Assembly: GCA_964493385.1 (NCBI GenBank)
Contig: CAZBNW010000005.1
Coordinates: 1-60,963 of the forward strand
Origin: an uncultured archaeon
GTDB lineage: Archaea; Asgardarchaeota; Lokiarchaeia; Sigyniarchaeales; SOKP01
Reading direction: 5' to 3'
Length of the DNA: 60,963 nucleotides
In this document: piece by piece, positions 10,364 to 43,243 of the stretch
Layout: each line of letters begins with the position of its first letter
Numbering within the stretch: position 1 is the first letter of the stretch
The notes under the pieces: generated by a model
Database searches by the model: none
Seen by the model: only the letters and a program-made list of their open reading frames with translations
Told to the model about the DNA's origin: nothing
Made by a program: the position numbers and the translations under genes

Positions 10364-11842
10364 CTAGTAAATAGTTTCTCCAGTTATTCGATTCACTTTT
10401 AAATGTCTGAATCTTGCTTTTTCTCTAATAATTTCTTTGCTAGTTGAGATTGTGTCAACAATCTCTTCCGGAAATAAATATTTTGCTAAATGAATTATCA
10501 TTTCCTTCGTTTCAATACAATTAAATAACTTTAGGCTTTCAACGGAGTAAAATAATTCACTTACTAAATCATAGTTCGTATCTACTGAAAAATCAAGAAG
10601 TTCTAAATTCCTATAAATTCGAGTTACAATATTTTTTAAGAGATCATACTCTTTTAACTTGGCAAGAGTATTGCTCATATAATGACTAAATAATACATAA
10701 TATGTAGCTTCTGATGAAACAAAACCATCTCGGAATTGTTTTATTCCTTCTGGAGTTATTCTTAACTCAATTTCTTCTAAGATTGCTGATATTTCACGTT
10801 CTAGTTTTTTAACTCCTAATTGGCGATACATTTTTAAAATTACTACTAATTGAGAAGTTTCTAGATTTTTCAAATAATTAGATTCAAAAAATTTTGGATC
10901 TGCTTTAATCAAGTTATTCACATGTTCAAAATCTAGCCACAGTTTCATCAACTCAGTTGATTTAATAAAATAATATGCTCCATCTGTAGCTTCAATAAGG
11001 GGTGATTCATATCTATCTGTAGCTTCTTCGTATAAATCTAGCAAAAAACTAACAATTTTTTTCTCTTCAAGATTAATATTCAGATGTTTAGCTAGATAAA
11101 TTCCACAAAAATAAAGATCAGGATTCTTTAGTGTGACCATTGGAACATCGATCAGCCACTCATCAATATTTTCTTCTAAATATAGTTTTATGTGAGAAAA
11201 ATCAAACATATTCTGAAGATGGAAGAAGTGAATGATTCTATGAATTAAATATAATAATTGAAGCTTAAATTGAGGTTCTACTAAATCTTCTAGACTTTCA
11301 ATTTTTTCTCGATTAGTCATGAATTTATCAATTATTTTTTCTTGGATTTGAACATATTTTCTTAAATTTTCTTTCTTTTCTGGAGAATTTTCGATCAAAT
11401 TTTTCAAATTTCGAAGTTCCATAATGAATTCAATATTTAATAAACCCTCAGATTTTAATTTTAGCATTAAAGGCACAACTTGAATATCAACAAGATAATC
11501 GACTATTTTTTCTAGAAAAATTTCATATATTATTGGAGCGACTTTTTTTTCAAAAAGTTCTATTAGTGAAGTTATTTCTTCTCGATCCTTTTCGTGTATT
11601 TCTAAAAAAGGGTCTAAAAATTTACTTTCGATTTCTGATTTTTCAAATCCCAATTCTTCAAAGAATTGCGTAAGATAAAAAACTAGATTTTCAAGCTTTT
11701 GATCTATATTAGTCTTATTAATTGGAGAATTTCCGAGAGTTTTATTAATATTATCATGGAAAAACTGATCTAAATTATTATAAAACAAGTCAATTTCTTT
11801 AAAATATAAATCTAAAATGTTAAATAATCCTTGAAAAATCAT
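10364..11842 (-). CDS. hypothetical all-helical protein
   Basis: 492-aa uninterrupted ORF with the same codon style as its neighbours. No motif recognised. Confidence 0.55.
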   Translation of the reverse strand: MIFQGLFNILDLYFKEIDLFYNNLDQFFHDNINKTLGNSPINKTNIDQKLENLVFYLTQFFEELGFEKSEIESKFLDPFLEIHEKDREEITSLIELFEKKVAPIIYEIFLEKIVDYLVDIQVVPLMLKLKSEGLLNIEFIMELRNLKNLIENSPEKKENLRKYVQIQEKIIDKFMTNREKIESLEDLVEPQFKLQLLYLIHRIIHFFHLQNMFDFSHIKLYLEENIDEWLIDVPMVTLKNPDLYFCGIYLAKHLNINLEEKKIVSFLLDLYEEATDRYESPLIEATDGAYYFIKSTELMKLWLDFEHVNNLIKADPKFFESNYLKNLETSQLVVILKMYRQLGVKKLEREISAILEEIELRITPEGIKQFRDGFVSSEATYYVLFSHYMSNTLAKLKEYDLLKNIVTRIYRNLELLDFSVDTNYDLVSELFYSVESLKLFNCIETKEMIIHLAKYLFPEEIVDTISTSKEIIREKARFRHLKVNRITGETIY

Positions 11843-12213: not shown

Positions 12214-13644
12214 ATGACAAGTATTATGTTTGGTACATCTGGTATTCGTAGAGTTTTTCAAAATTATAGCGAATCAGACCTTAAGTTTACTCCACAAATG
12301 GCTTTAGATGTCGGTCTTGCTTTAGGAACCTATCTAAATGGTAAAGGTAACGTTATAATAGGTAAAGATATTAGAACTTCTGCTTTACCAATAGAATATG
12401 CATTAATTTCTGGACTCGTGAGTACTGGATGTACTGTAAAGACTCTAGGGATTGTAACTACTCCCACTTTAGCTATGTCATTGCGTTTTTTAAATGCAGA
12501 AGCGGGGGTTATGATTACGGCCAGTCATAATACTCCTGAATATATTGGACTAAAAATCTGGAACCGTTCGGGTATGGGATATACACCAGAACAAGAGATA
12601 GAAATTGAAAGGATATACAATGAAAAAGCTTTTATAAACATTGAGTGGGATGAGGTTGGTAAAGTTACGCATATTGATGACATAAATGAGACACACATTT
12701 TAGATATTACAAATCGTATTACTTTTGATGGAAATAATTTAAATGTTATTTTTGATCCTGGAAACGGAGCTGGTTGTGATATTGTTCCGCGTTTATTAAG
12801 TGCTTATGATATTAACATAATAACTTTAAATGCACAAATGGATGGGAAATTTCCAGGTCGTCATTCAGAACCGAGTAAAGAAAACTTAATCCAAGTTTCA
12901 AAATTTATTAAAACTTCAGATAGAGAGACCATTGGAATTGCTCTTGATGGTGATGCTGATAGAGTAATATTTTTAGACGAAGACGGGGAAATTGTAGATC
13001 CTATTCGTCTTTTAACTCTTATGGCTAAAGATTACTTAGAAAGATATAGAGGAACTAAGATTCCAGAAGAGAATTTGAGGGTTGTCACGGCAATTAACTC
13101 GTCAAGTTTGATTGAAGATGTATTAAAACCTCTTGGCTGCGAAGTAGTTAGAACAGAAGTAGGGGATATTAAAGTGGCTATTGCCATTAAAGAACATGGT
13201 GGATTTGTAGGTGGAGAGACCTCAGGTACATATATATGGCCTAGTACTCATCTTGGACCCGATTCGATAGTTACAATCGCTAAAGTCTTAAGAATGATTG
13301 CTGAGAGGGAAAAACCATTACGTGATTTATTAAAAGAAATTCCAGAATACCCATTTTGTGAAACTAAATACCAATTGAAGAAAGATATCCCATTCAATGA
13401 AGATATTAATAAAAAAATCATTGAAGAAATGAAAGAGACTCTTGATAGTTTAGGAAAGAAAATAACAAACATCAACAAGATGGATGGAGTTAGATTTGAT
13501 TACAATGATGGTTGGATTTTAATAAGACGCTCAGGGACAAGTCCATATTTAAGACTCACAGGTGAATCAAGCGTTAATTTAGAAGCTTCAGAGGAAATGA
13601 ACAAGCTTGCAAAGGAAAAAATGGAGAAATTGAATTTAATATAG
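12214..13644 (+). CDS. glmM: phosphoglucosamine mutase / phosphomannomutase (alpha-D-phosphohexomutase)
   Basis: 476 aa with all four family motifs: ITASHNTPE, LDGDADR, GGETSG, RRSGTSPYLR. Confidence 0.85.
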   Translation: MTSIMFGTSGIRRVFQNYSESDLKFTPQMALDVGLALGTYLNGKGNVIIGKDIRTSALPIEYALISGLVSTGCTVKTLGIVTTPTLAMSLRFLNAEAGVMITASHNTPEYIGLKIWNRSGMGYTPEQEIEIERIYNEKAFINIEWDEVGKVTHIDDINETHILDITNRITFDGNNLNVIFDPGNGAGCDIVPRLLSAYDINIITLNAQMDGKFPGRHSEPSKENLIQVSKFIKTSDRETIGIALDGDADRVIFLDEDGEIVDPIRLLTLMAKDYLERYRGTKIPEENLRVVTAINSSSLIEDVLKPLGCEVVRTEVGDIKVAIAIKEHGGFVGGETSGTYIWPSTHLGPDSIVTIAKVLRMIAEREKPLRDLLKEIPEYPFCETKYQLKKDIPFNEDINKKIIEEMKETLDSLGKKITNINKMDGVRFDYNDGWILIRRSGTSPYLRLTGESSVNLEASEEMNKLAKEKMEKLNLI

Positions 13645-30228: not shown

Positions 30229-30759
30229 TTGAATCAATCTCTTTCATTAACTCTTTTGAAAGGTAAAGAAAAATTTTTGAATATAAAAAATAGATTAATT
30301 AAAGAATTAAAAAGAAGTTTATCTGAATTGGTAGAAGAAAAAATAGAAAAAAATTACTCAAAGTATATAGAATTCTTAATTAAAAATATTCGAGAGATTA
30401 AGAAAACCATAGATAAGCTACAAGATATAGAATTAATTTTTAACTCCAAAGATTATAATTATCTATTGAAAAATTATGATAAAATTCAAGGCTTATTCAA
30501 AAATCCTGTTGAAATTAATAAAGATAGAATTGATTTTATTGGAGGTTTTAAAATCTCATTGGTTGGAGGGACAATCTCTTATGATTACACCATAGATAAT
30601 TTAATAAATATTAAATCTTCATTTATTCAGATGGAAATTTCTAAGATTGTTAATGATTCAGAAATTAAGCAAATCGAAAATAATTTTAATAATTTTATTC
30701 AAAATCAAAAAACAAAAATAACAGAATATCTCACACAGTATGATCAAATCCAATTCTAA
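30229..30759 (+). CDS. atpE: A-type ATP synthase subunit E; ORF-track TTG start is almost certainly too far downstream (frame is open from 30025)
   Basis: C-terminal globular part with IGGFKISLVGGTISYDYTIDNL matches the AtpE tail. The N-terminal stalk helix is encoded upstream in the same frame. Confidence 0.75.
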   Translation: MNQSLSLTLLKGKEKFLNIKNRLIKELKRSLSELVEEKIEKNYSKYIEFLIKNIREIKKTIDKLQDIELIFNSKDYNYLLKNYDKIQGLFKNPVEINKDRIDFIGGFKISLVGGTISYDYTIDNLINIKSSFIQMEISKIVNDSEIKQIENNFNNFIQNQKTKITEYLTQYDQIQF

Positions 30760-32584
30760 AATCAATATCCAATATGGGCACATTTCAGCAATTATTGGTT
30801 CTTTAATCAAAATAAAAGGATTAGAAAGTTCTATTCGGCTCCGCGATTTAATTAAAGTATCTAAGTATAATATCTTAGGAGAAGTGATTCATATTTATTC
30901 TGATCATATTGTAGCCCAGTGTTTTGAAAATACAGTGAATTTGAGAATTAATGATAAAGTAATAAGCCTAAATGAACCTCTTTCTATGGAATTAGGACCC
31001 GGATTATTAGGAAATACTTTTGATGGGATCCAAAGACCTTTACAAAACGCATTTGAACTTTTTAAGGAAGGAGGATTACATAGAGGATTGGAGATACCTT
31101 CTTTATCAAGAACAAAAAAATGGCATTTTTTTCCACGAACAAAGATTAATGATGAATTGAAAAGTGGAGATATTGTAGGAATAGTCCAAGAAACTCCTTT
31201 AATAGAACATAAAATAATGATTCCCCCAAATGTCAATGGAAAATTATCATTTATCGCATCTGAGGATGATTATACAATTACTGACGAAGTTTTTAGATTG
31301 ATAATAGATAACAAAGAGAAATCTTTTACCATGTTACAAAAATGGCCTGTAAATAAAGCTAGACCCTTTAAAGAGAGAGATCAACCAAAAGAACCTTTGA
31401 TTACGGGTATTAGAATTATAGATTTATTGTTCCCAATAAGTAAAGGAGGCACAATTGGTGTTCCAGGAGGTTTTGGAACCGGAAAAACAGTGATCCAACA
31501 ATCTTTAGCTAAATGGTGCAATGCGGATGTAATTGTCTTTGTAGGATGTGGTGAAAGAGGGAATGAAATAGCAGACGTTTTAAAACAATTTTCTGAGCTA
31601 ATTGATCCTAATAGTGAACGTCCTTTACTAGAACGGATCATATTAATTGCTAATACCTCTAATATGCCGGTATCGGCACGTGAAGCGAGTATCTTTTCGG
31701 GGGTCACTATAGCAGAATATTATCGGGATATGGGATATGATGTTGCTGTTCTTGCTGATAGCACGTCAAGATGGGCAGAATCTTTACGAGAAATTTCTGG
31801 ATTATTAGAAGAAATGCCTGCTGAAGAAGGTTATCCTGCATATTTACCATCGAAACTTTCTAGCTTTTATGAGCGAGCTGGTTTTGTTAAATTATTCGGG
31901 AAAGAAGAATCTGGAACGGAGCGATTCGGATCTTTAACTATAATAGGTTCAATATCTCCTCCCGCTGGAGATTTTAGTGAACCTGTGACTGCAACCACAA
32001 AAAATTTCGTACAAGGAATTTGGTCGTTAGACGCTGCTTTAGCATATTCAAAGCATTATCCTGCGATCAATTGGCTAAACTCTTATTCAAATTATCCGGA
32101 TTATCTCTCTAGATGGTGGTATGAAAGAGATATAGATTGGTCAGAAATAGATCTCGACTGGTTTGATTGTCGTAAGCAAGTAAATGATATCTTATCTCAA
32201 GATAATGAGTTGAAGTATGTTACACAATTAATTGGAGAAGAGAATTTACCTGAAGAACAACAATTAATTATATTTATAGCGAAACTAATTAAGGAAGGTT
32301 TTTTAATTCAGAACGCATTTGATGAGATTGATAATTATACAAGTACTAGAAAACTGCTGGGAATGATTAAGCTCATTCTTTTAATTTATAAAGAAGGCAT
32401 AGAGCTCATGAAACAGGGTTTCTACATAGAAGACATAAAAACTCTCAGTACAATAAATGAAGTCTTGAGAATAAGCCGAGCTGTACATAATGATAAATTC
32501 CATAAGGTAGAAGCTTTGAAAAAAAAATTGCTTAATGATATAGAATACTTAAAATTAACAACTAAAGTGTTAAAAAAAAAATGA
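30740..32584 (+). CDS. atpA: A-type ATP synthase catalytic subunit A
   Basis: 614 aa. Walker [18 protein letters not shown] catalytic loop, [10 protein letters not shown] Walker B region. Confidence 0.95.
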
Positions 32585-36987: not shown

Positions 36988-37425
36988 ATGTCAAACGGAA
37001 ATAAAAAAAAAGAAATATCTCGTAAAGGATTTATTCTGAGATTAATTGTATTAATATCATATCTGCTGGTTCTCCTATATTTATATTATCTCTTTGTAGA
37101 ATTCGGATCCAACCCTTTCATTGTGATTATATTATTATCATTTGTATTTCTAATTACGATAGGTCCATTTTTAGGAAAAAAAAGAAGGTCACTTTACTCT
37201 AGAATGTTTCCGGAGAGAAAGAAGCGACCAGTGCAGAGTAAAGAGAGACGTAAGAGAAGACCTATTATAGAAAAAGAACTTAAGCAAATTCAACCGAAAA
37301 TATTCCAAGCAATTGATCTTGAATTTGAATATCGTGAACCATTAATCAGTAATTGTGAAAATTGTGGAAATATTTTACCAAATTTTGTAAAAAAAAAATG
37401 TCCTTTTTGTGGAGAACAAGTATAA
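36988..37425 (+). CDS. membrane protein with C-terminal zinc ribbon
   Basis: 145 aa. Two hydrophobic helices, a very basic linker (KKRPVQSKERRKRRP), and a CENCG...CPFCG zinc ribbon. Confidence 0.55.
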   Translation: MSNGNKKKEISRKGFILRLIVLISYLLVLLYLYYLFVEFGSNPFIVIILLSFVFLITIGPFLGKKRRSLYSRMFPERKKRPVQSKERRKRRPIIEKELKQIQPKIFQAIDLEFEYREPLISNCENCGNILPNFVKKKCPFCGEQV

Positions 37426-37444: not shown

Positions 37445-39271
37445 ATGAAGTCTATAAAAAATTCTGACAAAGAATCTAAAAATGGTTATATTTCGGCAAT
37501 CACAGGATCACTGATTAAAATAAAAGGAATAGAAAATAATGTTCACCTTTATGATTTAATTAAAATTTCAAAATATAATATCTTAGGTGAAGTAATACAG
37601 ATTTATACAGACCATGTGATTGTTCAATGTTTCGAAAACACAATAAAAGTGAAGTTAAATGATGAAGTCATTGGTTTAAATGAAACGTTATCAATGGAGT
37701 TAGCTCCAGGTCTCCTTTCAAATGTTTTTGATGGAATACAGAGACCTTTAGAAATAGTTTTTAACAATGCTAGTTCCGGAGAGCTAGACCGAGGTGTAAA
37801 ATTTCCTCCTTTGTCAAGATCTAAAAAATGGCATTTTACACCGTTAAGAACAATTGATGAAGCTGTAGAAAGTGGAGATATAATAGGCATTGTTCAAGAA
37901 ACTCAATTTTTAGAGCATAAAATAATGGTTCCTCCAAATGTCACTGGAAAATTATCTTTTATCACAAGAGAGGGTGATTACACAATTATAGATGAGATAT
38001 ATAGAATACATATAGATGGGGAAGATAAATCCTTTACAATGCTACAAAAGTGGCCAATTACGAAAAGTCGTCCTTATAAAAAGAAAGAAAATCCAAAAGA
38101 ACCTCTAATTACTGGAATTCGAATGATAGATTTATTATTTCCACTCGCAAAGGGGGGAACTACTGCTATTCCTGGAGGTTTTGGAACAGGAAAAACTGTA
38201 ATTCAACACTCACTAGCTAAGTGGTGTAACGCTGATGTGATTGTATATATTGGTTGCGGTGAACCTGGAAATGAAATTGCCAATGTTTTGAAACAATTTT
38301 CAGAAACAAAAAATCCTAAAAGCGGGTCTCCTTTATTAGAAAGGGTAGTTCTTATAGCAAATACCTCTAATATGTCGGTTTCAGCTCGAGAAGCAAGTCT
38401 ATTCTCTGGAGTTACAATAGCAGAATACTATCGTGATATGGGATATGATGTTGCTGTTCTTGCAGATAGTACATCAAGGTGGGCAGAGTCATTACGAGAA
38501 ATCTCTGGATTATTGGAAGAAATGCCAGCAGAAGAAGGGTATCCCGCCTACTTGCCTTCTAAACTATCTAGCTTTTATGAAAGAGCAGGTGTAGTTAAAA
38601 CTTTAGGAAAAGACCATCTTGGAAATGAAAGAATTGGTACTTTAACGATTGTTGGAACTCTTTCTCCTCCCGCAGGGGATTTCAGTGAACCTGTCACTGC
38701 CACAACAAAGCGGTTAGTTCAAGTCTTTTGGGCATTAGATCCTAGTCTAGCATATTTAAAACATTATCCCGCTATCAATTGGCTTAACTCCTATTCCAAT
38801 TATCCTACGCCCCTTGCAGATTGGTGGTATGAAAGAGATATTGATTGGGTTGAGATAGATATTGATTGGTTAGAATGCCGAAAACAAGTAAATGACATAC
38901 TTTCTGAAGAGCAAGATTTAAAACATGTTATTCAATTAATAGGGGAAAAAAACTTGCCACAAGATTCTCAGCTAATCCTCTTCATAGCAAGAATAGTTAG
39001 GAACGGTTTTTTAATCCAAAGCGCATTTGATGATATCGATAACTTTACTGATGTTAAAAAAATGTTAGGCATCATTAAACTCATTCTCTTAATTTATAAA
39101 GAAGGTAAAAACTTTCTAAATAGAGGATTACTAATTGAATATCTAATAGATCCTGAGCTTATAACCTCAATATTAAGAATAAATCAAACTATACGAAATA
39201 GCGATTTTCAACAAATAGAAAACTTAAAAAATAAGCTTCTACAAACGTTTAGGAGTCTAACATTAGAATAA
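37445..39271 (+). CDS. second, diverged A-type ATP synthase A-subunit paralog (GER loop changed to GEP)
   Basis: 608 aa, roughly 70% identical by eye to atpA at 30740. Walker [10 protein letters not shown] is intact. GCGEPGNE replaces GCGERGNE (CCT at 38264-38266 versus AGA at 31556-31558). Confidence 0.9.
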
Positions 39272-39294
39272 AATTCTTAACTTTTATCTTTCTT

Positions 39295-39364
39295 TTAAGG
39301 CTTGAACCACTCAAAAAAATAATAGCTACAAGTAAGAGGATTTGCGATAACAAACTTTTTCCTC
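39295..39364 (-). pseudogene. orphan 3'-terminal fragment of tRNA-splicing endonuclease gene (last ~22 codons plus stop)
   Basis: Minus-strand translation RKKFVIANPLTCSYYFFEWFKP-TAA is identical in amino acids to the C-terminus of endA at 42647-42715. There is no upstream coding continuation. Confidence 0.75.
39297..39364. repeat. direct repeat copy 1 (68 bp; att-like)
   Basis: 39297-39345 is identical (49/49) to 42649-42697. The next 19 bp match 15/19. Confidence 0.9.
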
Positions 39365-39505
39365 CTATTACATAATGTTCGAAAAGTGCACCTTAAAGTT
39401 TTAAAATCTCTTTGAATAGTAATATATTAAAGAAATATTTTTATTGACAATTATAATAAAAAAGTATATAGCATAATTCTATGTTTAAGAGGTGAAATTT
39501 ACAAC

Positions 39506-39757
39506 TTGTATAAAGAATTAACTCAATTTTATAAAATTGGAAAAGAGTTAGGATTAAAAAGAAGTGAAATTAACCGAACATTTATATTTTCAGGAAATCG
39601 TTCTTTGTTATTTAAGTTTTTATTAATATTTGTTTTAGCTTTAATAGCTGTCGTTGTAGTTGTTGTTATAGTGGGTTGGGTTGGATCCAGATCTGTTTAT
39701 GCAAGCGGAACCTTCTATTCATCTGTTAAGTTAAATGATTTTAAGAATAAAAAATGA
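39506..39757 (+). CDS. small single-pass membrane peptide, paralog A (candidate precursor/substrate peptide)
   Basis: 83 aa. TTG start 10 nt after AGAGGTGA. Shares YKIGKELGL, EINR, a TM helix and a GT-x-YS-x-VK-x-x-DF tail with the ORF at 42366. Stop overlaps the next gene's start (ATGA). Confidence 0.6.
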   Translation: MYKELTQFYKIGKELGLKRSEINRTFIFSGNRSLLFKFLLIFVLALIAVVVVVVIVGWVGSRSVYASGTFYSSVKLNDFKNKK

Positions 39758-41088
39758 AGTTAAACGTTGGTTCTGGAAGAAGATATGACCCAGATTATTG
39801 CAATATTGATTTATATGAAGACATATTAGCAGATCAACAAATGTCTGCGATAAACCTATCATTTCTCGATAACTCTTGTGAAGAGGTTAAAGCAATTCAG
39901 TTAATTGAACATATAGGTTTTTTCAAATCTCTCTATGTATTAAGCGAATTTTTTAGAGTCTTACAGTTTAATGGAGTTCTAATTATAGAAACACCTGACA
40001 TTGAAAAGGCTTTTCAATCCTATTTAAATGGAAACTATGAACAGCAAAAGGAAATTTTAGGATGGATATTTGGTATTCCCCATGAAGGTCTTCAGCATAA
40101 GTTATGCTATCCCTCAAAATTGTTAGCGGAAATGCTTAGAAAAATAGGATTTATTGATATAAAAGAAAGAAAATATTATAATACAGAATCAATACCCACT
40201 TTAAGAATTGAATGTAAAAAGCCTTCAAAAGAGAATTTCTTACAAGTTATTACACATATTCGAAAACAAATGTTATTAGAGAACATAGTAGATTTTAAAA
40301 ACTCATTTCTAGCAAAAGAGCAGGAGGATTTATTAACGTTTATTTTATTAAAGTTAAAAGAATTTGAAGGAAAAAAAGAAAAAAAATTTATCTTTGAAAT
40401 TATTAAGACTATTCTAATAAGATTTCCTCAAGTAGCTAAAATTTTTCTTAAAGCGATTGAGGATATTAATTATCTTTCAAGTTTTGAGATAAAATACATT
40501 TATGAAATAATTGAATATATAATAAAATACAACCTTCCTAATATTTTATTTAATTCTCTTAAAAAACTGCCAACAATTCCAGGAACTCAAATGTTTGCAT
40601 TTTCATCAATAGAAGCATTTGGTGAAAGAATAATAGAGAAATTAATGTTTTTTAAAAATGAAAAGCAGCAACAATTAACTCGTTTAAAGAAACTATCAAC
40701 AACTAATAAACCGAATGAGTTATTCTTTTTCTCTTCCGAGATGGTTCAAAGAAAATCTCAAGAATATTTCTATCAAGGAATAAAGGAATTTTACAATCAA
40801 AATTATGACATTGCCAAAGAGAAATTGTTAAGCTCAATTCAATTATTTAGGGATGATTTAACTTATTACTGGAATTTAGCAAAAGTGTTCGTTAAATTGA
40901 ATTTAAAATCAAATGCACTAAAAACTTATAGGAGAACATTAAGATTGCTAAGAATTAGTAAAATAAAGAATAAAAAGATGATTAAAAAGGATATCACTTC
41001 AGAAATAAGTTGCGTAAAGAAGTCAACAGAATCATTAGCGAACTTTAATCCCATCATAACTCTCGATAAGTACTATTCCGTAAATTAA
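39754..41088 (+). CDS. class I SAM-dependent methyltransferase with C-terminal helical-repeat (TPR-like) domain
   Basis: 444 aa. N-terminal LNVGSG...NIDL...AIQLIEHI...NGVLIIETPD matches the Methyltransf_11/23-type fold. The C-terminal approximately 270 aa are helical, with a TPR-like YYWNLAKVFVKLNLKSNALKTYRRTL. Confidence 0.7.
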   Translation: MKLNVGSGRRYDPDYCNIDLYEDILADQQMSAINLSFLDNSCEEVKAIQLIEHIGFFKSLYVLSEFFRVLQFNGVLIIETPDIEKAFQSYLNGNYEQQKEILGWIFGIPHEGLQHKLCYPSKLLAEMLRKIGFIDIKERKYYNTESIPTLRIECKKPSKENFLQVITHIRKQMLLENIVDFKNSFLAKEQEDLLTFILLKLKEFEGKKEKKFIFEIIKTILIRFPQVAKIFLKAIEDINYLSSFEIKYIYEIIEYIIKYNLPNILFNSLKKLPTIPGTQMFAFSSIEAFGERIIEKLMFFKNEKQQQLTRLKKLSTTNKPNELFFFSSEMVQRKSQEYFYQGIKEFYNQNYDIAKEKLLSSIQLFRDDLTYYWNLAKVFVKLNLKSNALKTYRRTLRLLRISKIKNKKMIKKDITSEISCVKKSTESLANFNPIITLDKYYSVN

Positions 41089-41205
41089 AAAGCAATTATA
41101 TTATTTTCCATAACGATTATATCATGAAATATTCAATTTTAATAACAAAAGTTTTAAAAGAAATTTAATCAATTTATATTTCAGAAAAAGAATCAAATAA
41201 TTACA

Positions 41206-42330
41206 ATGCCAAGTTTAATATCACTTTTAACCCGTAGAATAAAAAATTCTTGTGCAGTTTGGGAAATTACTTTAAAATGTAATAGCAAATGCATTCATTG
41301 TGGGTCCAGAGCGGGTAGCGCGCGTTCAGATGAGTTAAATACTGAGGAAGCGTTAAAGTTAGTAAAAGAGTTCCATTCATGTGGCTATAAAGGTGTCGCA
41401 TTAATGGGTGGAGAACCTCTAATTAGAGAAGACTGGTTTGAAATTGCGAAAGAAGTTAAGAAATATAAAATGGACTTATCAATCGTTACTAACGGATTAA
41501 ATGTTGTTAACCATATTCAAAAATTGAAAAAGTTAGATGTAGATTGCGTATCTTTAAGCTTAGACGGGGGGATTCCAGAAACACATGATTATCTTAGAGG
41601 AATTAAAGGAGCATATGATAAAACTATAAATGCTATGAAGACATTAAAAAAAGAAAAACTTCCTGTCTCAATAATTACAGCTATTAGTAAAAGAAACTTA
41701 AATGAAGTAGATTTAATTAAAAATTTGATTTTAGATCATAATGTTTCTTGGCAAATTCAATTAGCAGTCCCTATTGGACGTTTTCCTAAAGATTTAACTA
41801 TTTCAAGAGAAGAATATTATGTATTAGCAATGTTTATTTCAATCAGTGTTAAAAAATACTCCTATCGAAGACTCCCTGTAATAGGAGCACATTGCATTGG
41901 TCACTTTTCAAGGTTCATCCCAAATTTAGGGTTAGCGCCCTGGGTAGGATGTCAAGCAGGATATTCGGTGTTAGGTATTCAAAGCAATGGAAATATAAAA
42001 GGATGTTTAACTCTTCCAGATGAATTTATCGAAGGAAATGTAAGAACTCAAAGTTTAAAGGAAATTGTATCAAATCCTCACGCTTTTGCATATAATCGAA
42101 GCTTTAAAAAAGAGAATCTAATTGGTTATTGCAGAAATTGTGATATGGCAAACGAATGTAGAGGAGGATGTCTAGGTACTGGTTATGCAATTAATTCCCA
42201 TGATTCCCCCTATTGCTTACGAGCAATAGAAAATACGCGCTTTAATTCACAAATATTTAATATTAAAGGAAAAATGGACTCAATTTTATCAAAATATAAA
42301 AATCTTTATTCTAAAATTCTAAATATTTAA
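41206..42330 (+). CDS. radical SAM enzyme with SPASM domain (peptide-maturase-like)
   Basis: 374 aa. CNSKCIHC (CxxxCxxC, nt 41278-41301), GGEPL, then SPASM cysteines GCQAG...NGNIKGC...CRNCDMANECRGGC. Confidence 0.9.
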   Translation: MPSLISLLTRRIKNSCAVWEITLKCNSKCIHCGSRAGSARSDELNTEEALKLVKEFHSCGYKGVALMGGEPLIREDWFEIAKEVKKYKMDLSIVTNGLNVVNHIQKLKKLDVDCVSLSLDGGIPETHDYLRGIKGAYDKTINAMKTLKKEKLPVSIITAISKRNLNEVDLIKNLILDHNVSWQIQLAVPIGRFPKDLTISREEYYVLAMFISISVKKYSYRRLPVIGAHCIGHFSRFIPNLGLAPWVGCQAGYSVLGIQSNGNIKGCLTLPDEFIEGNVRTQSLKEIVSNPHAFAYNRSFKKENLIGYCRNCDMANECRGGCLGTGYAINSHDSPYCLRAIENTRFNSQIFNIKGKMDSILSKYKNLYSKILNI

Positions 42331-42365
42331 AATTTTAAATCAAAAATTTGGAGGAAATTTGTTAA

Positions 42366-42626
42366 ATGATCAGCAATATACTAAATATATATAAAATTGG
42401 AAAGGAACTAGGATTAAACAAAAAAGAGATAAATAGATTAGTATTTTTTAAAAATCACAAATATAGTCTATTACTTATAATCCTTACAATCATTACCTTC
42501 ACTTTTTTAGCATTAATTATAGCATTTTCTTATGTTCAAATTGATAGCAATACTTATCCGATAGGTACAAAATATTCAACAGTTAAAATAAAAGATTTTC
42601 GATTAAAAAGGAATAAAAGAGTATAA
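42366..42626 (+). CDS. small single-pass membrane peptide, paralog B (candidate precursor/substrate peptide)
   Basis: 86 aa. ATG preceded by GGAGG. Same N-terminal motif, TM helix and tail as the ORF at 39506. Confidence 0.6.
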   Translation: MISNILNIYKIGKELGLNKKEINRLVFFKNHKYSLLLIILTIITFTFLALIIAFSYVQIDSNTYPIGTKYSTVKIKDFRLKRNKRV

Positions 42627-42646
42627 TAATACTGTGAATTTACTTT

Positions 42647-43243
42647 TCAAGGCTTGAACCACTCAAAAAAATAATAGCTACAAGTAAGAGGATTTGCTAT
42701 TACGAATTTTTTCCTCACAGATGTAGCTAAACGACCGGCTCTTACCATATCGATAGCCGTAATTTCAGAATCATGAGGTAGAACATGAACCATAAAAAGG
42801 GAATGTTCGAGTCCGGGACCTTTTTTATAAACCACGAAATCTGCTCCAAATTTAAGCCCAGGTCTCGGAATGTACCCTTTCTTCCTTAAATCTTTATATA
42901 TAATATATTTTTCTTCAAATTTATGATGAATTTTTTTTGCTATCCCATGAAATTTCTTAGGATTTAAATTTATGTTCTCTTTTACGTCAAAAATAGTTAT
43001 ATCATCCCTTTCCAATAAGTAATAAGCTTCTATTAAAGATAATTCGCTTGGTTTGGAAAAATATTCTAAGCGTGGTTTACTAATTCCAAGTGGACTCCCG
43101 AAAAAGTTTTTTTTTACATAAAGGTAAGATGCATATAATGGATTGAAAACAATTACTCGATTATTTATAAATTTCGTAGGAATTTTATCCGGGACTTCGA
43201 TATCGTCAAGAGAGATTTGCTCATCCTTTACTTGATTCATCAT
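42647..43243 (-). CDS. endA: tRNA-splicing (intron) endonuclease
   Basis: 198 aa. YKDLRKKGYIPRPGLKFGADFVVYKKGP...H...RLATSVRKK matches the EndA catalytic domain (Tyr/His/Lys triad context). Confidence 0.85.
   Translation of the reverse strand: MMNQVKDEQISLDDIEVPDKIPTKFINNRVIVFNPLYASYLYVKKNFFGSPLGISKPRLEYFSKPSELSLIEAYYLLERDDITIFDVKENINLNPKKFHGIAKKIHHKFEEKYIIYKDLRKKGYIPRPGLKFGADFVVYKKGPGLEHSLFMVHVLPHDSEITAIDMVRAGRLATSVRKKFVIANPLTCSYYFFEWFKP
42649..42716. repeat. direct repeat copy 2 (68 bp; forms the real 3' end of endA)
   Basis: See copy 1. The two copies are offset by 3352 bp. Confidence 0.9.

Follow-up and report, generated by a model that had tools for sequence, protein, structure and literature searches.

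A cassette of four genes, found in a 60,963-nt stretch of contig CAZBNW010000005.1 (GCA_964493385.1; hereafter the window) from a Sigyniarchaeales SOKP01 archaeon of the Lokiarchaeia, encodes an enzyme of the radical S-adenosylmethionine (SAM) superfamily with a SPASM domain, a 444-amino-acid (444-aa) protein predicted to join a methyltransferase fold to a tetratricopeptide repeat (TPR)-like domain, and two paralogous small proteins, here called peptides A and B (genes pepA and pepB). Judging from sequence comparison, we consider it probable that the two small proteins are substrates of the radical SAM enzyme and the methyltransferase, the whole forming a three-component module that resembles the systems producing peptides that are made by ribosomes and modified after translation (RiPPs). 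In relatives, one and the same leader is found with a core that is single, repeated in tandem or set apart by a membrane helix. Such leader/core logic makes substrates the most likely role for the peptides, and this modularity is hard to square with an anchor, a regulator or an immunity protein.

The cassette and its products

The four genes follow one another on the forward strand between a second paralogue of the A-type ATPase catalytic subunit (37445-39271) and the convergent endA gene (Table 1). The pepA stop codon overlaps the start of the 444-aa open reading frame (ORF) in an ATGA, and Shine-Dalgarno sequences stand about 10 nt 5′ of the pepA start (AGAGGTGA) and 11 nt 5′ of the pepB start (GGAGG). 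An earlier sequence-only reading of the stretch had described four same-strand genes, this overlap and both Shine-Dalgarno sequences, and the ORF calls and the sequence agree with it. The position of the pepA start is kept in relatives as ATG, GTG or TTG, each behind an identical Shine-Dalgarno sequence.

Peptides A and B are 34% identical (BLASTP, E 2e-11). They have in common the string YKIGKELGL, followed after three residues by EINR, and tails (YASGTFYSSVKLNDFKNKK and YPIGTKYSTVKIKDFRLKRNKRV) of the form Y-x-x-G-T-x-Y-S-x-V-K-x-x-D-F that run into Lys/Arg residues. Together with a hydrophobic segment, these are the features that the same reading had noticed, and they are confirmed by BLASTP and by the alignment of the family. 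A profile of the peptides matched 348 proteins of 81-121 aa, most of them nameless and the named ones labelled only as "hypothetical", "unnamed" or "uncharacterized", and HMMER, run exhaustively with the family against 1.84 billion cluster representatives, returned 64 clusters only. It had been foreseen that the small ORFs might turn out to be without conserved homologues; these exist in hundreds, which indicates that the ORFs are real genes of a compact family. When 104 distinct peptides were aligned, the N-terminal 30 aa and the C-terminal core were conserved and the hydrophobic middle was variable. The conserved parts are referred to here as the leader (about 30 aa, consensus Q-x-Y-K-I-G-K-E-L-G-L-x-K-K-E-I-N) and the core (about 15 aa, consensus Y-P-x-G-T-x-Y-S-[ST]-[VI]-K-x-K-D-F, then a Lys/Arg tail). 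The segment between them is strongly hydrophobic (median Kyte-Doolittle value of 3.1 over 19 residues), its 15-residue flanks carry a median net charge of +2 on the N-terminal and +1 on the C-terminal side, and the distal C-tail is very basic. No Pfam or NCBIfam family matched the peptides of the window or their Thermoplasmatota, Thor and bacterial versions.

By its sequence, the 374-aa protein is a member of the radical SAM superfamily with a SPASM domain. PF04055 matched it with 92 bits (E 6e-26; gathering threshold 29.5) and the SPASM family PF13186 with 36.8 bits (E 4.9e-9; gathering threshold 21.5). The full set of SPASM cysteines claimed before is thereby established, all seven being invariant in 42 homologues: C249-x12-G-x4-C267, C309-x2-C312-x5-C318-x3-C322 and C337 fit the pattern Cx9-15Gx4C, Cx2Cx5Cx3C, C. 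Homologues of the enzyme number more than 1100; the best 120 are 46-100% identical to it, and all named ones among these come from Asgard metagenome-assembled genomes (MAGs) of the Lokiarchaeia/Promethearchaeota and the Hod-, Hermod-, Thor- and Atabeyarchaeia.

The two best NCBIfam matches are near full-length and both models stand for peptide maturases, namely TIGR04103 (nif11-class peptide radical SAM maturase 3; 226 bits, cut-off 725) and TIGR03913 (GDL motif peptide-associated; 192 bits, cut-off 592); the window enzyme differs from both in lying far under the cut-offs, and its peptides match no model. A firm grouping with AhbD, NirJ or PqqE had been named as the result that would speak against peptide modification, and the scores are far from it: AhbD 157 bits (cut-off 500), NirJ2 138 (500), NirJ 113 (515), AhbC 111 (650), MftC 126 (265) and PqqE 81 (381). 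AhbD, NirJ, PqqE, MftC, WgkB, StsB, SkfB, DynA and the other NCBIfam equivalogs were rejected as identities, all being far under their cut-offs, and no NCBIfam model rose above threshold with the enzymes of the window or of the Thermoplasmatota-type, Thorarchaeota-type and bacterial relatives tested. The nearest solved structures are SkfB, BlsE and PqqE by sequence, and BlsE, PqqE, SkfB, SuiB, CteB and anSME by fold. In the model of the enzyme (predicted local distance difference test score, pLDDT, 84.9), the radical SAM barrel begins at about residue 16, which leaves no room for an N-terminal RiPP recognition element (RRE) domain.

The 444-aa protein is best described as a predicted methyltransferase, with a domain of that fold fused to a TPR-like domain, a description supported by its AlphaFold2 (AF2) model. 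The model, built from 42 homologues, has a pLDDT of 89.8 and a predicted template modelling score (pTM) of 0.86, and its residues 1-160 take the form of a Rossmann-type domain. The top Foldseek matches of this N-terminal domain are the class I SAM methyltransferases 2p8j, 1vlm, Rv2258c and METTL6 (E 4e-6 to 1e-4, probability 1.0). Only the fold search gave matches, a sequence search of the PDB with the 444-aa protein returning nothing meaningful. G6 and G8 of the Gly-rich motif, the acidic D19 after strand 2 and the pair E52-H53 are invariant in Asgard, Thermoplasmatota, Thorarchaeota and bacterial members. We found 139 full-length homologues, those with names all being Asgard proteins, and some homologues have weak Pfam matches to Methyltransf_23 (PF13489), Methyltransf_11 (PF08241) and TPR_2. 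The methyltransferase assignment draws on the predicted structure, the conserved motifs and these weak matches.

A loop of the same protein, aa 104-120 (40063-40113), reads W-x-x-G-x-x-x-x-G-x-x-H-x-x-C-x-P. Its W104, G107, G112 and H115 are invariant from Asgard to bacterial members, its C and P are nearly so, and AF2 models it with a pLDDT under 50; the loop may take part in catalysis or in binding the substrate. A viral contig collection searched with the 444-aa family held no full-length homologue: the matches were generic stand-alone methyltransferase domains that cover residues 1 to about 180 at 24-40% identity, and many phage contigs (L141-L210) encode small methyltransferases that start with MKLN[IV]G[CS]G and are without the TPR part.

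Gene neighbourhoods and the flanking repeat

Species-representative genomes were scanned with the 444-aa family, which gave 52 loci, all in Asgard MAGs; ORFs were called in these loci and searched with hidden Markov models of the three components. In every adequately flanked locus, the 444-aa gene stands beside the radical SAM gene and 1-5 peptide genes, so that the co-occurrence of YKIGKELGL-type peptides with the enzyme pair, which the sequence-only reading had suggested looking for, holds throughout. Two gene orders are seen, peptide-methyltransferase-radical SAM-peptide in the clade of the window and radical SAM-peptide (1-3)-methyltransferase (-peptide). Where a peptide gene stands directly 5′ of the 444-aa gene, the two usually have 4 nt in common. 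The neighbours of the cassette vary by clade, with ATPase genes and endA in that of the window and ferredoxin/molybdopterin or thiolase genes in others, and it follows from these differing surroundings that the trio moves as a unit. Some Asgard genomes hold two copies of the cassette.

A multipass membrane protein of about 200-217 aa, which has no Pfam match, adjoins the cassette in 12 loci with either gene order (for example, L006 10901-11554; L035 5258-5866; L038 598-1236; L049 4369-5007). In several loci its gene comes after a peptide gene with a 4-nt overlap. A search across the window found no homologue of this protein.

The cassette of the window is bordered by a 72-nt direct repeat (93% identical), in which about the last 23 codons of endA are duplicated. 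The sequence-only reading had taken the cassette for an insert between att-like repeats; the repeat is real and the insertion is doubtful. That the cassette is the cargo of a small integrative element inserted at the endA 3′ end, with the repeats as att sites, is in our judgement unlikely. The geometry fits, in that endA next to the cassette is intact and a displaced part of its 3′ end recurs beyond the other border, the same 3′ end is duplicated around a different insert in a relative (L011), and the cassette occurs in several unrelated neighbourhoods. However, no recombinase-like Pfam domain was found in the ORFs of the cassette or in the neighbouring ORFs scanned, the viral contig collection holds no full-length 444-aa homologue, and the GC content of the cassette shows no difference from that of its flanks. 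In the close relatives compared at the flanks (L001/L006, L008, L010; 75-91% protein identity), the cassette likewise lies between AtpA and endA and the left copy of the repeat is not intact, and no empty AtpA/endA site was found among the relatives compared.

In L011, the two copies of the endA 3′ end are 89 nt long and 81% identical (11318-11406 and 12557-12645), and they enclose an insert of about 1.15 kb with ORFs of 73 and 158 aa of no assigned function. The insert shortens a third peptide paralogue (11228-11398). This second case of duplication makes the endA 3′ end look like a recurrent site of recombination or integration in the lineage.

Related precursors and the role of the peptides

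The design of the peptides becomes clearer outside the Lokiarchaeial form. In Atabeyarchaeia, the radical SAM gene is followed by two peptide genes (116-118 aa) and then by one for a 432-aa homologue of the 444-aa protein; the three-part design of the window peptides recurs in these. Soluble precursors with several cores are encoded at three metagenome loci (L059-L061) and at two of Thermoplasmatota (L064 and L068), where the adjoining radical SAM enzyme is 46-53% identical to that of the window. The precursors of L059-L061 carry the N-terminal motif of the peptides (VYKMGESLGLSRKDID, IYKIGKNLGLNREDID and VYKIGKTLGLNKKDID), have no hydrophobic segment and contain 2-7 tandem copies of LYKAGTxYGT[IV]SPKDL, which aligns position by position to the window tails YPxGTxYS[ST]VKxKDF. 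Each of these three loci holds a second SPASM paralogue; L061 also has a 471-aa radical SAM protein and a 442-aa homologue of the 444-aa protein, and L059 and L060 add genes for B12-binding radical SAM proteins. The genes noted as additional at these loci lie at L059 2917-4212 and 7052-8371 and at L060 3917-5281. It is reasonable to suppose, given the B12-binding enzymes and the second SPASM paralogue, that the same core receives extra modifications at the multi-core loci.

A genome scan with the distant clade of radical SAM enzymes gave 79 loci, many with 444-aa homologues and family peptides beside the radical SAM gene. In most Thermoplasmatota loci, the enzyme is accompanied by a 444-aa homologue, and the peptides are mostly soluble, 52-77 aa long and in many cases end in ...YGTVSI[KN]DF, a few loci having variants with a transmembrane segment; Thorarchaeota peptides are longer and membrane-anchored. 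In bacteria such as Elusimicrobia, Geobacteraceae and their kin, the n-region of a lipoprotein-type signal peptide is formed by the leader motif (MKKLYELGAKTGLT..EVNR); the hydrophobic part of this signal ends in a motif like a lipobox, x-x-[AGS]-C and in most cases L-[AT]-[AG]-C, and the core reads CGPYPGYPCGTRYYTVSRADF. The archaeal setting from which the sequence-only reading had started is correct for the Asgard loci, and the 79-locus scan extends the system to bacteria. A metagenomic protein of 174 aa (P0415) has three leader-plus-core modules in series, an arrangement that points to leader and core working together as one unit at any place in a chain. The core consensus over all groups is Y-x-x-G-[TS]-x-Y-[GS]-[TS]-[VI]-[SK]-x-K-D-[FL]. 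Peptide ORFs of the lipoprotein type were seen in L089, L090, L094, L098, L103, L110, L112, L118, L120 and L127, mainly Elusimicrobia, and bacterial members of the family have a conserved CGPYPGYPCG before the core.

The co-occurrence of the genes, the copy number of 1-5 and the soluble multi-core relatives all favour RiPP-like substrates in which one part is recognised and another modified, as the sequence-only reading had proposed for the small ORFs. A short precursor gene adjoins a modifying enzyme in more than 50 loci and the recognition part is separate from the core; in its architecture, the cassette appears to be that of a RiPP system in which the RRE and the cluster-encoded protease or exporter, common and not universal in such systems, are absent.

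We hypothesize that, in the cytoplasm, the TPR-like domain of the 444-aa protein would bind the leader and recruit the RRE-less radical SAM enzyme; the 4-nt overlap between pepA and the 444-aa gene suggests that both products are made together. The radical SAM enzyme would act on the core, most likely to give a cross-link or a side-chain change in the Y-[GS]-[TS]-[VI] stretch, and the methyltransferase domain would methylate it, with the invariant Asp, a Tyr and a Lys as candidate sites. Modification would come before membrane insertion, after which the peptide would lie N-in/C-out with its tail outside. It would remain tethered to the membrane, for the cassette has neither protease nor exporter. 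Gene content, predicted folds, motifs, adjacency, variable peptide copy number and leader/core modularity are what the comparison shows; which partner binds the leader, which reaction follows, how the peptide sits in the membrane and what it does in the end are what we infer. For the bacterial relatives, general export and signal peptidase may take the place of a dedicated protease and transporter, as their lipoprotein-type signals indicate, which would explain why these are absent.

Several observations weigh against substrates. A PqqD/RRE domain, which the sequence-only reading had recommended searching for along with the SPASM domain, gave no match in any of the four cassette proteins. Nor did Pfam, NCBIfam or the ORF survey reveal a leader protease or an exporter in the cassette of the window, and we know of no precedent for a core parted from its leader by a membrane helix. 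The conserved termini of the peptides could also mean a structural role. Both termini being positive, the topology is ambiguous, the flank charges weakly favouring N-in. The SAM methyltransferase with a helical, TPR-like tail that had been read from the sequence is upheld by the AF2 fold and the invariant motifs, but not by Pfam, where the window protein has no methyltransferase match at E<0.1; it also has GSG where most members of its family have GCG.

An alternative in which the peptides are no substrates and serve as membrane anchors, regulators or immunity proteins, tethering or controlling the two enzymes while these act on another target, seems to us quite unlikely. The very hydrophobic segment, an N-terminal motif that by eye resembles a helix-turn-helix and the lack of a protease or exporter would suit it, and the translational coupling of pepA to the 444-aa gene also fits a stoichiometric complex. 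However, homologous systems can do without the membrane segment, the number of peptide genes ranges from one to five per locus, and an anchor or regulator role leaves unexplained why the C-terminal motif is repeated two to seven times in soluble relatives. Membrane-anchored regulators or immunity proteins had been offered as the alternative before, and it is these soluble relatives with tandem cores that disfavour them.

A further possibility is that the peptides are sacrificial precursors of a small redox cofactor, in the manner of PQQ or mycofactocin, freed by an unlinked protease. The invariant core with its Tyr, which is extreme C-terminal in many Thermoplasmatota peptides (...YGTVSIKDF), the retention of the gene set across Lokiarchaeial MAGs (among housekeeping genes in the clade of the window) and the partial matches of the enzyme to the MftC and PqqE models point that way. 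Both scores are well below the cut-offs given above, though, and the cassette of the window has no PqqD/MftB-like RRE or peptidase. Multiple paralogous precursors and a membrane anchor are also atypical of the PQQ and mycofactocin pathways, and we regard this origin as improbable.

It is highly improbable that the small ORFs adjoin the enzyme by chance and that its substrate is a tetrapyrrole, as for AhbD/NirJ, or, as for Gms/Tes, a membrane lipid: the AhbD and NirJ2 scores, a weak PDB match to Tes (7tol) and the existence of lipid-modifying archaeal SPASM enzymes (PMC11186832) are outweighed by AhbD/NirJ scores far under cut-offs of 500-650 and by the adjacency of enzyme and peptide genes in more than 50 loci, two domains and different neighbourhoods. 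By the definition used for Gms homologues, these exceed 420 aa in length, and they carry a six-helix domain at the N terminus (PMC11186832). A lipid-modifying enzyme of the Gms/Tes type was rejected for the window protein, which has 374 aa, a model devoid of the six-helix domain and a Tes match of E 1.3e-4 only.

Among characterised systems, SuiB/StrB (streptide), CteB, SkfB and PqqE are near neighbours in sequence or structure; like the window enzyme, they combine a radical SAM core with a seven-Cys SPASM domain, and stand beside short precursor genes, whose products join a conserved recognition part to a short motif for modification. The cassette described here differs in an identity of only 16-22%, in the absence of an N-terminal RRE/PqqD domain and of any separate RRE domain among the cassette proteins scanned, in the membrane helix of its precursors, in the absence of protease and exporter, and in its methyltransferase-TPR partner. 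Some of the distant related loci do have a peptidase C1 (L059) or an alpha/beta hydrolase (L060; Abhydrolase_1, with a faint Peptidase_S9 match), unlike the cassette of the window. With anSME, the enzyme shares the absence of an RRE, a length of about 370 aa and, as proposed here, action on a short protein motif, and the two are structural neighbours (template modelling score 0.61-0.65); the sulfatase motif (C/S)xPxR is, however, not in the peptides, and the 25 best NCBIfam matches include no model for anSME.

Class II chaperones of type III secretion (LcrH/SycD), which are TPR proteins, keep proteins that have hydrophobic membrane segments within the cytoplasm. They are matched weakly by a bacterial homologue of the 444-aa protein, not by the window protein itself (E 1.3e-6; 28 bits, cut-off 105), and their likeness, that of a helical TPR domain, is an analogy only, the TPR domain here being fused to a methyltransferase.

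The cyclopropylglycine synthases TvgB and TigE are SPASM radical SAM enzymes whose precursors have TVGG or TIGSVS repeats, TigE acting on Ile and TvgB on Val (PMC9062424, PMC10878394). The tandem short motif with Thr-Val or Thr-Ile is common to these precursors and to the family described here, and the invariant [ST]-[VI] of the core makes Val/Ile chemistry of the TvgB/TigE type a lead. Cyclopropyl synthases are defined by a strictly conserved GYW that ligates Aux I and by an N-terminal RRE (PMC10878394). The window enzyme was rejected as one of them, since its 374-aa sequence has no GYW and its model no RRE.

More tentatively, and with clear reservations, we raise the possibility of a previously unrecognised class of peptide/protein modification common to anaerobic archaea and bacteria, in which an RRE-less radical SAM enzyme and a dedicated methyltransferase would yield a surface-tethered product. 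Such a class might take in Lokiarchaeia, Atabeyarchaeia, Thorarchaeia, Thermoplasmatota, Elusimicrobiota, Geobacteraceae and others, with Y-[GS]-[TS]-[VI]-x-x-K-D-F as the motif that would receive new chemistry, and its leader could perhaps also serve, on the cytoplasmic side, as the n-region of a lipoprotein signal or a signal anchor, with the cell's general apparatus for membrane insertion and signal cleavage standing in for a dedicated protease and exporter; we hold each of these as possible rather than probable.

Radical SAM/SPASM peptide maturases are among the main sources of new peptide chemistry. To our knowledge, the characterised ones are almost all bacterial and their products are secreted and leader-cleaved. 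A full-text search of the literature on Asgard RiPP and radical SAM systems and on the peptide motifs found no description of the cassette, an archaeal RiPP survey having counted radical SAM-type clusters generically and in aggregate only, and no curated Pfam or NCBIfam family dedicated to any of the three components was found. What appears new is the membrane helix between leader and core, a methyltransferase-TPR partner instead of an RRE, and a leader placed inside signal sequences, in a gene set that many Lokiarchaeial MAGs retain and that extends to further phyla of anaerobic archaea and bacteria. If the peptides are indeed modified, their core would be a new motif and the reaction on it probably new as well, the way in which an enzyme without an RRE finds its substrate would become visible, and the archaea closest to eukaryotes would have a small membrane protein that is modified after translation. 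For work on this chemistry, the soluble precursors of Thermoplasmatota offer a practical way in, as no membrane peptide needs to be expressed.

Other features of the locus

The features of the cassette and its borders are collected in Table 1.

Table 1. Positions of the cassette genes, their parts and the bordering features in the window.
Feature	Position	Strand	Basis
Displaced copy of the endA 3′ end (about 23 codons), left arm of the 72-nt direct repeat	39293..39364		sequence comparison
Conserved upstream region of the cassette	39365..39505	+	intergenic sequence kept in L001, L008, L010
A/T-rich, TATA-like stretch within the upstream region	about 39449-39464	+	read from sequence
Shine-Dalgarno sequence of pepA	39488-39495	+	read from sequence
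pepA, 83 aa, TTG start	39506..39757	+	ORF call
Peptide A, leader-like motif, aa 1-30	39506-39595	+	family conservation
Peptide A, hydrophobic segment, aa 38-60	39617-39685	+	sequence
Peptide A, core Y65-F79, then Lys tail	39698-39742	+	family conservation
444-aa protein gene	39754..41088	+	ORF call; 4-nt overlap with pepA stop
Class I methyltransferase-fold domain (predicted), aa 1-160	39754-40233	+	AF2 model, Foldseek
All-helical TPR-like domain (predicted), aa 163-444	40240-41085	+	AF2 model
Radical SAM/SPASM enzyme gene, 374 aa	41206..42330	+	ORF call, Pfam
CX3CX2C motif (C25/C29/C32)	41278-41301	+	invariant in 42 homologues
Seven SPASM cysteines	within 41950-42216	+	invariant in 42 homologues
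pepB, 86 aa	42366..42626	+	ORF call
Peptide B, leader-like motif, aa 1-30	42366-42455	+	family conservation
Peptide B, hydrophobic segment, aa 33-59	42462-42542	+	sequence
Peptide B, core Y64-F78, then Lys/Arg tail	42555-42599	+	family conservation
True endA 3′ end, right arm of the direct repeat	42645..42716	-	sequence comparison
endA (tRNA-splicing endonuclease)	42647-43243	-	ORF call, Pfam

The TATA-like stretch upstream of pepA is a putative promoter, as far as can be read from the sequence. A promoter scan returned 25 sites against 20.8 expected; its model is of the sigma-70 type and says nothing useful about an archaeal host. No terminator was found, and Rfam gave no match between 38500 and 43500.

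The ATPase cluster 5′ of the cassette has two paralogues of the catalytic A subunit. A 614-aa A gene (30740-32584) is followed by B, D and I, and the second paralogue, a 608-aa A-like gene (37445-39271), comes after an ORF for a 145-aa membrane/zinc-ribbon protein (36988-37425). L001 and L002 show the same layout of I, an ORF of about 147 aa and the A-like gene directly 5′ of the cassette.

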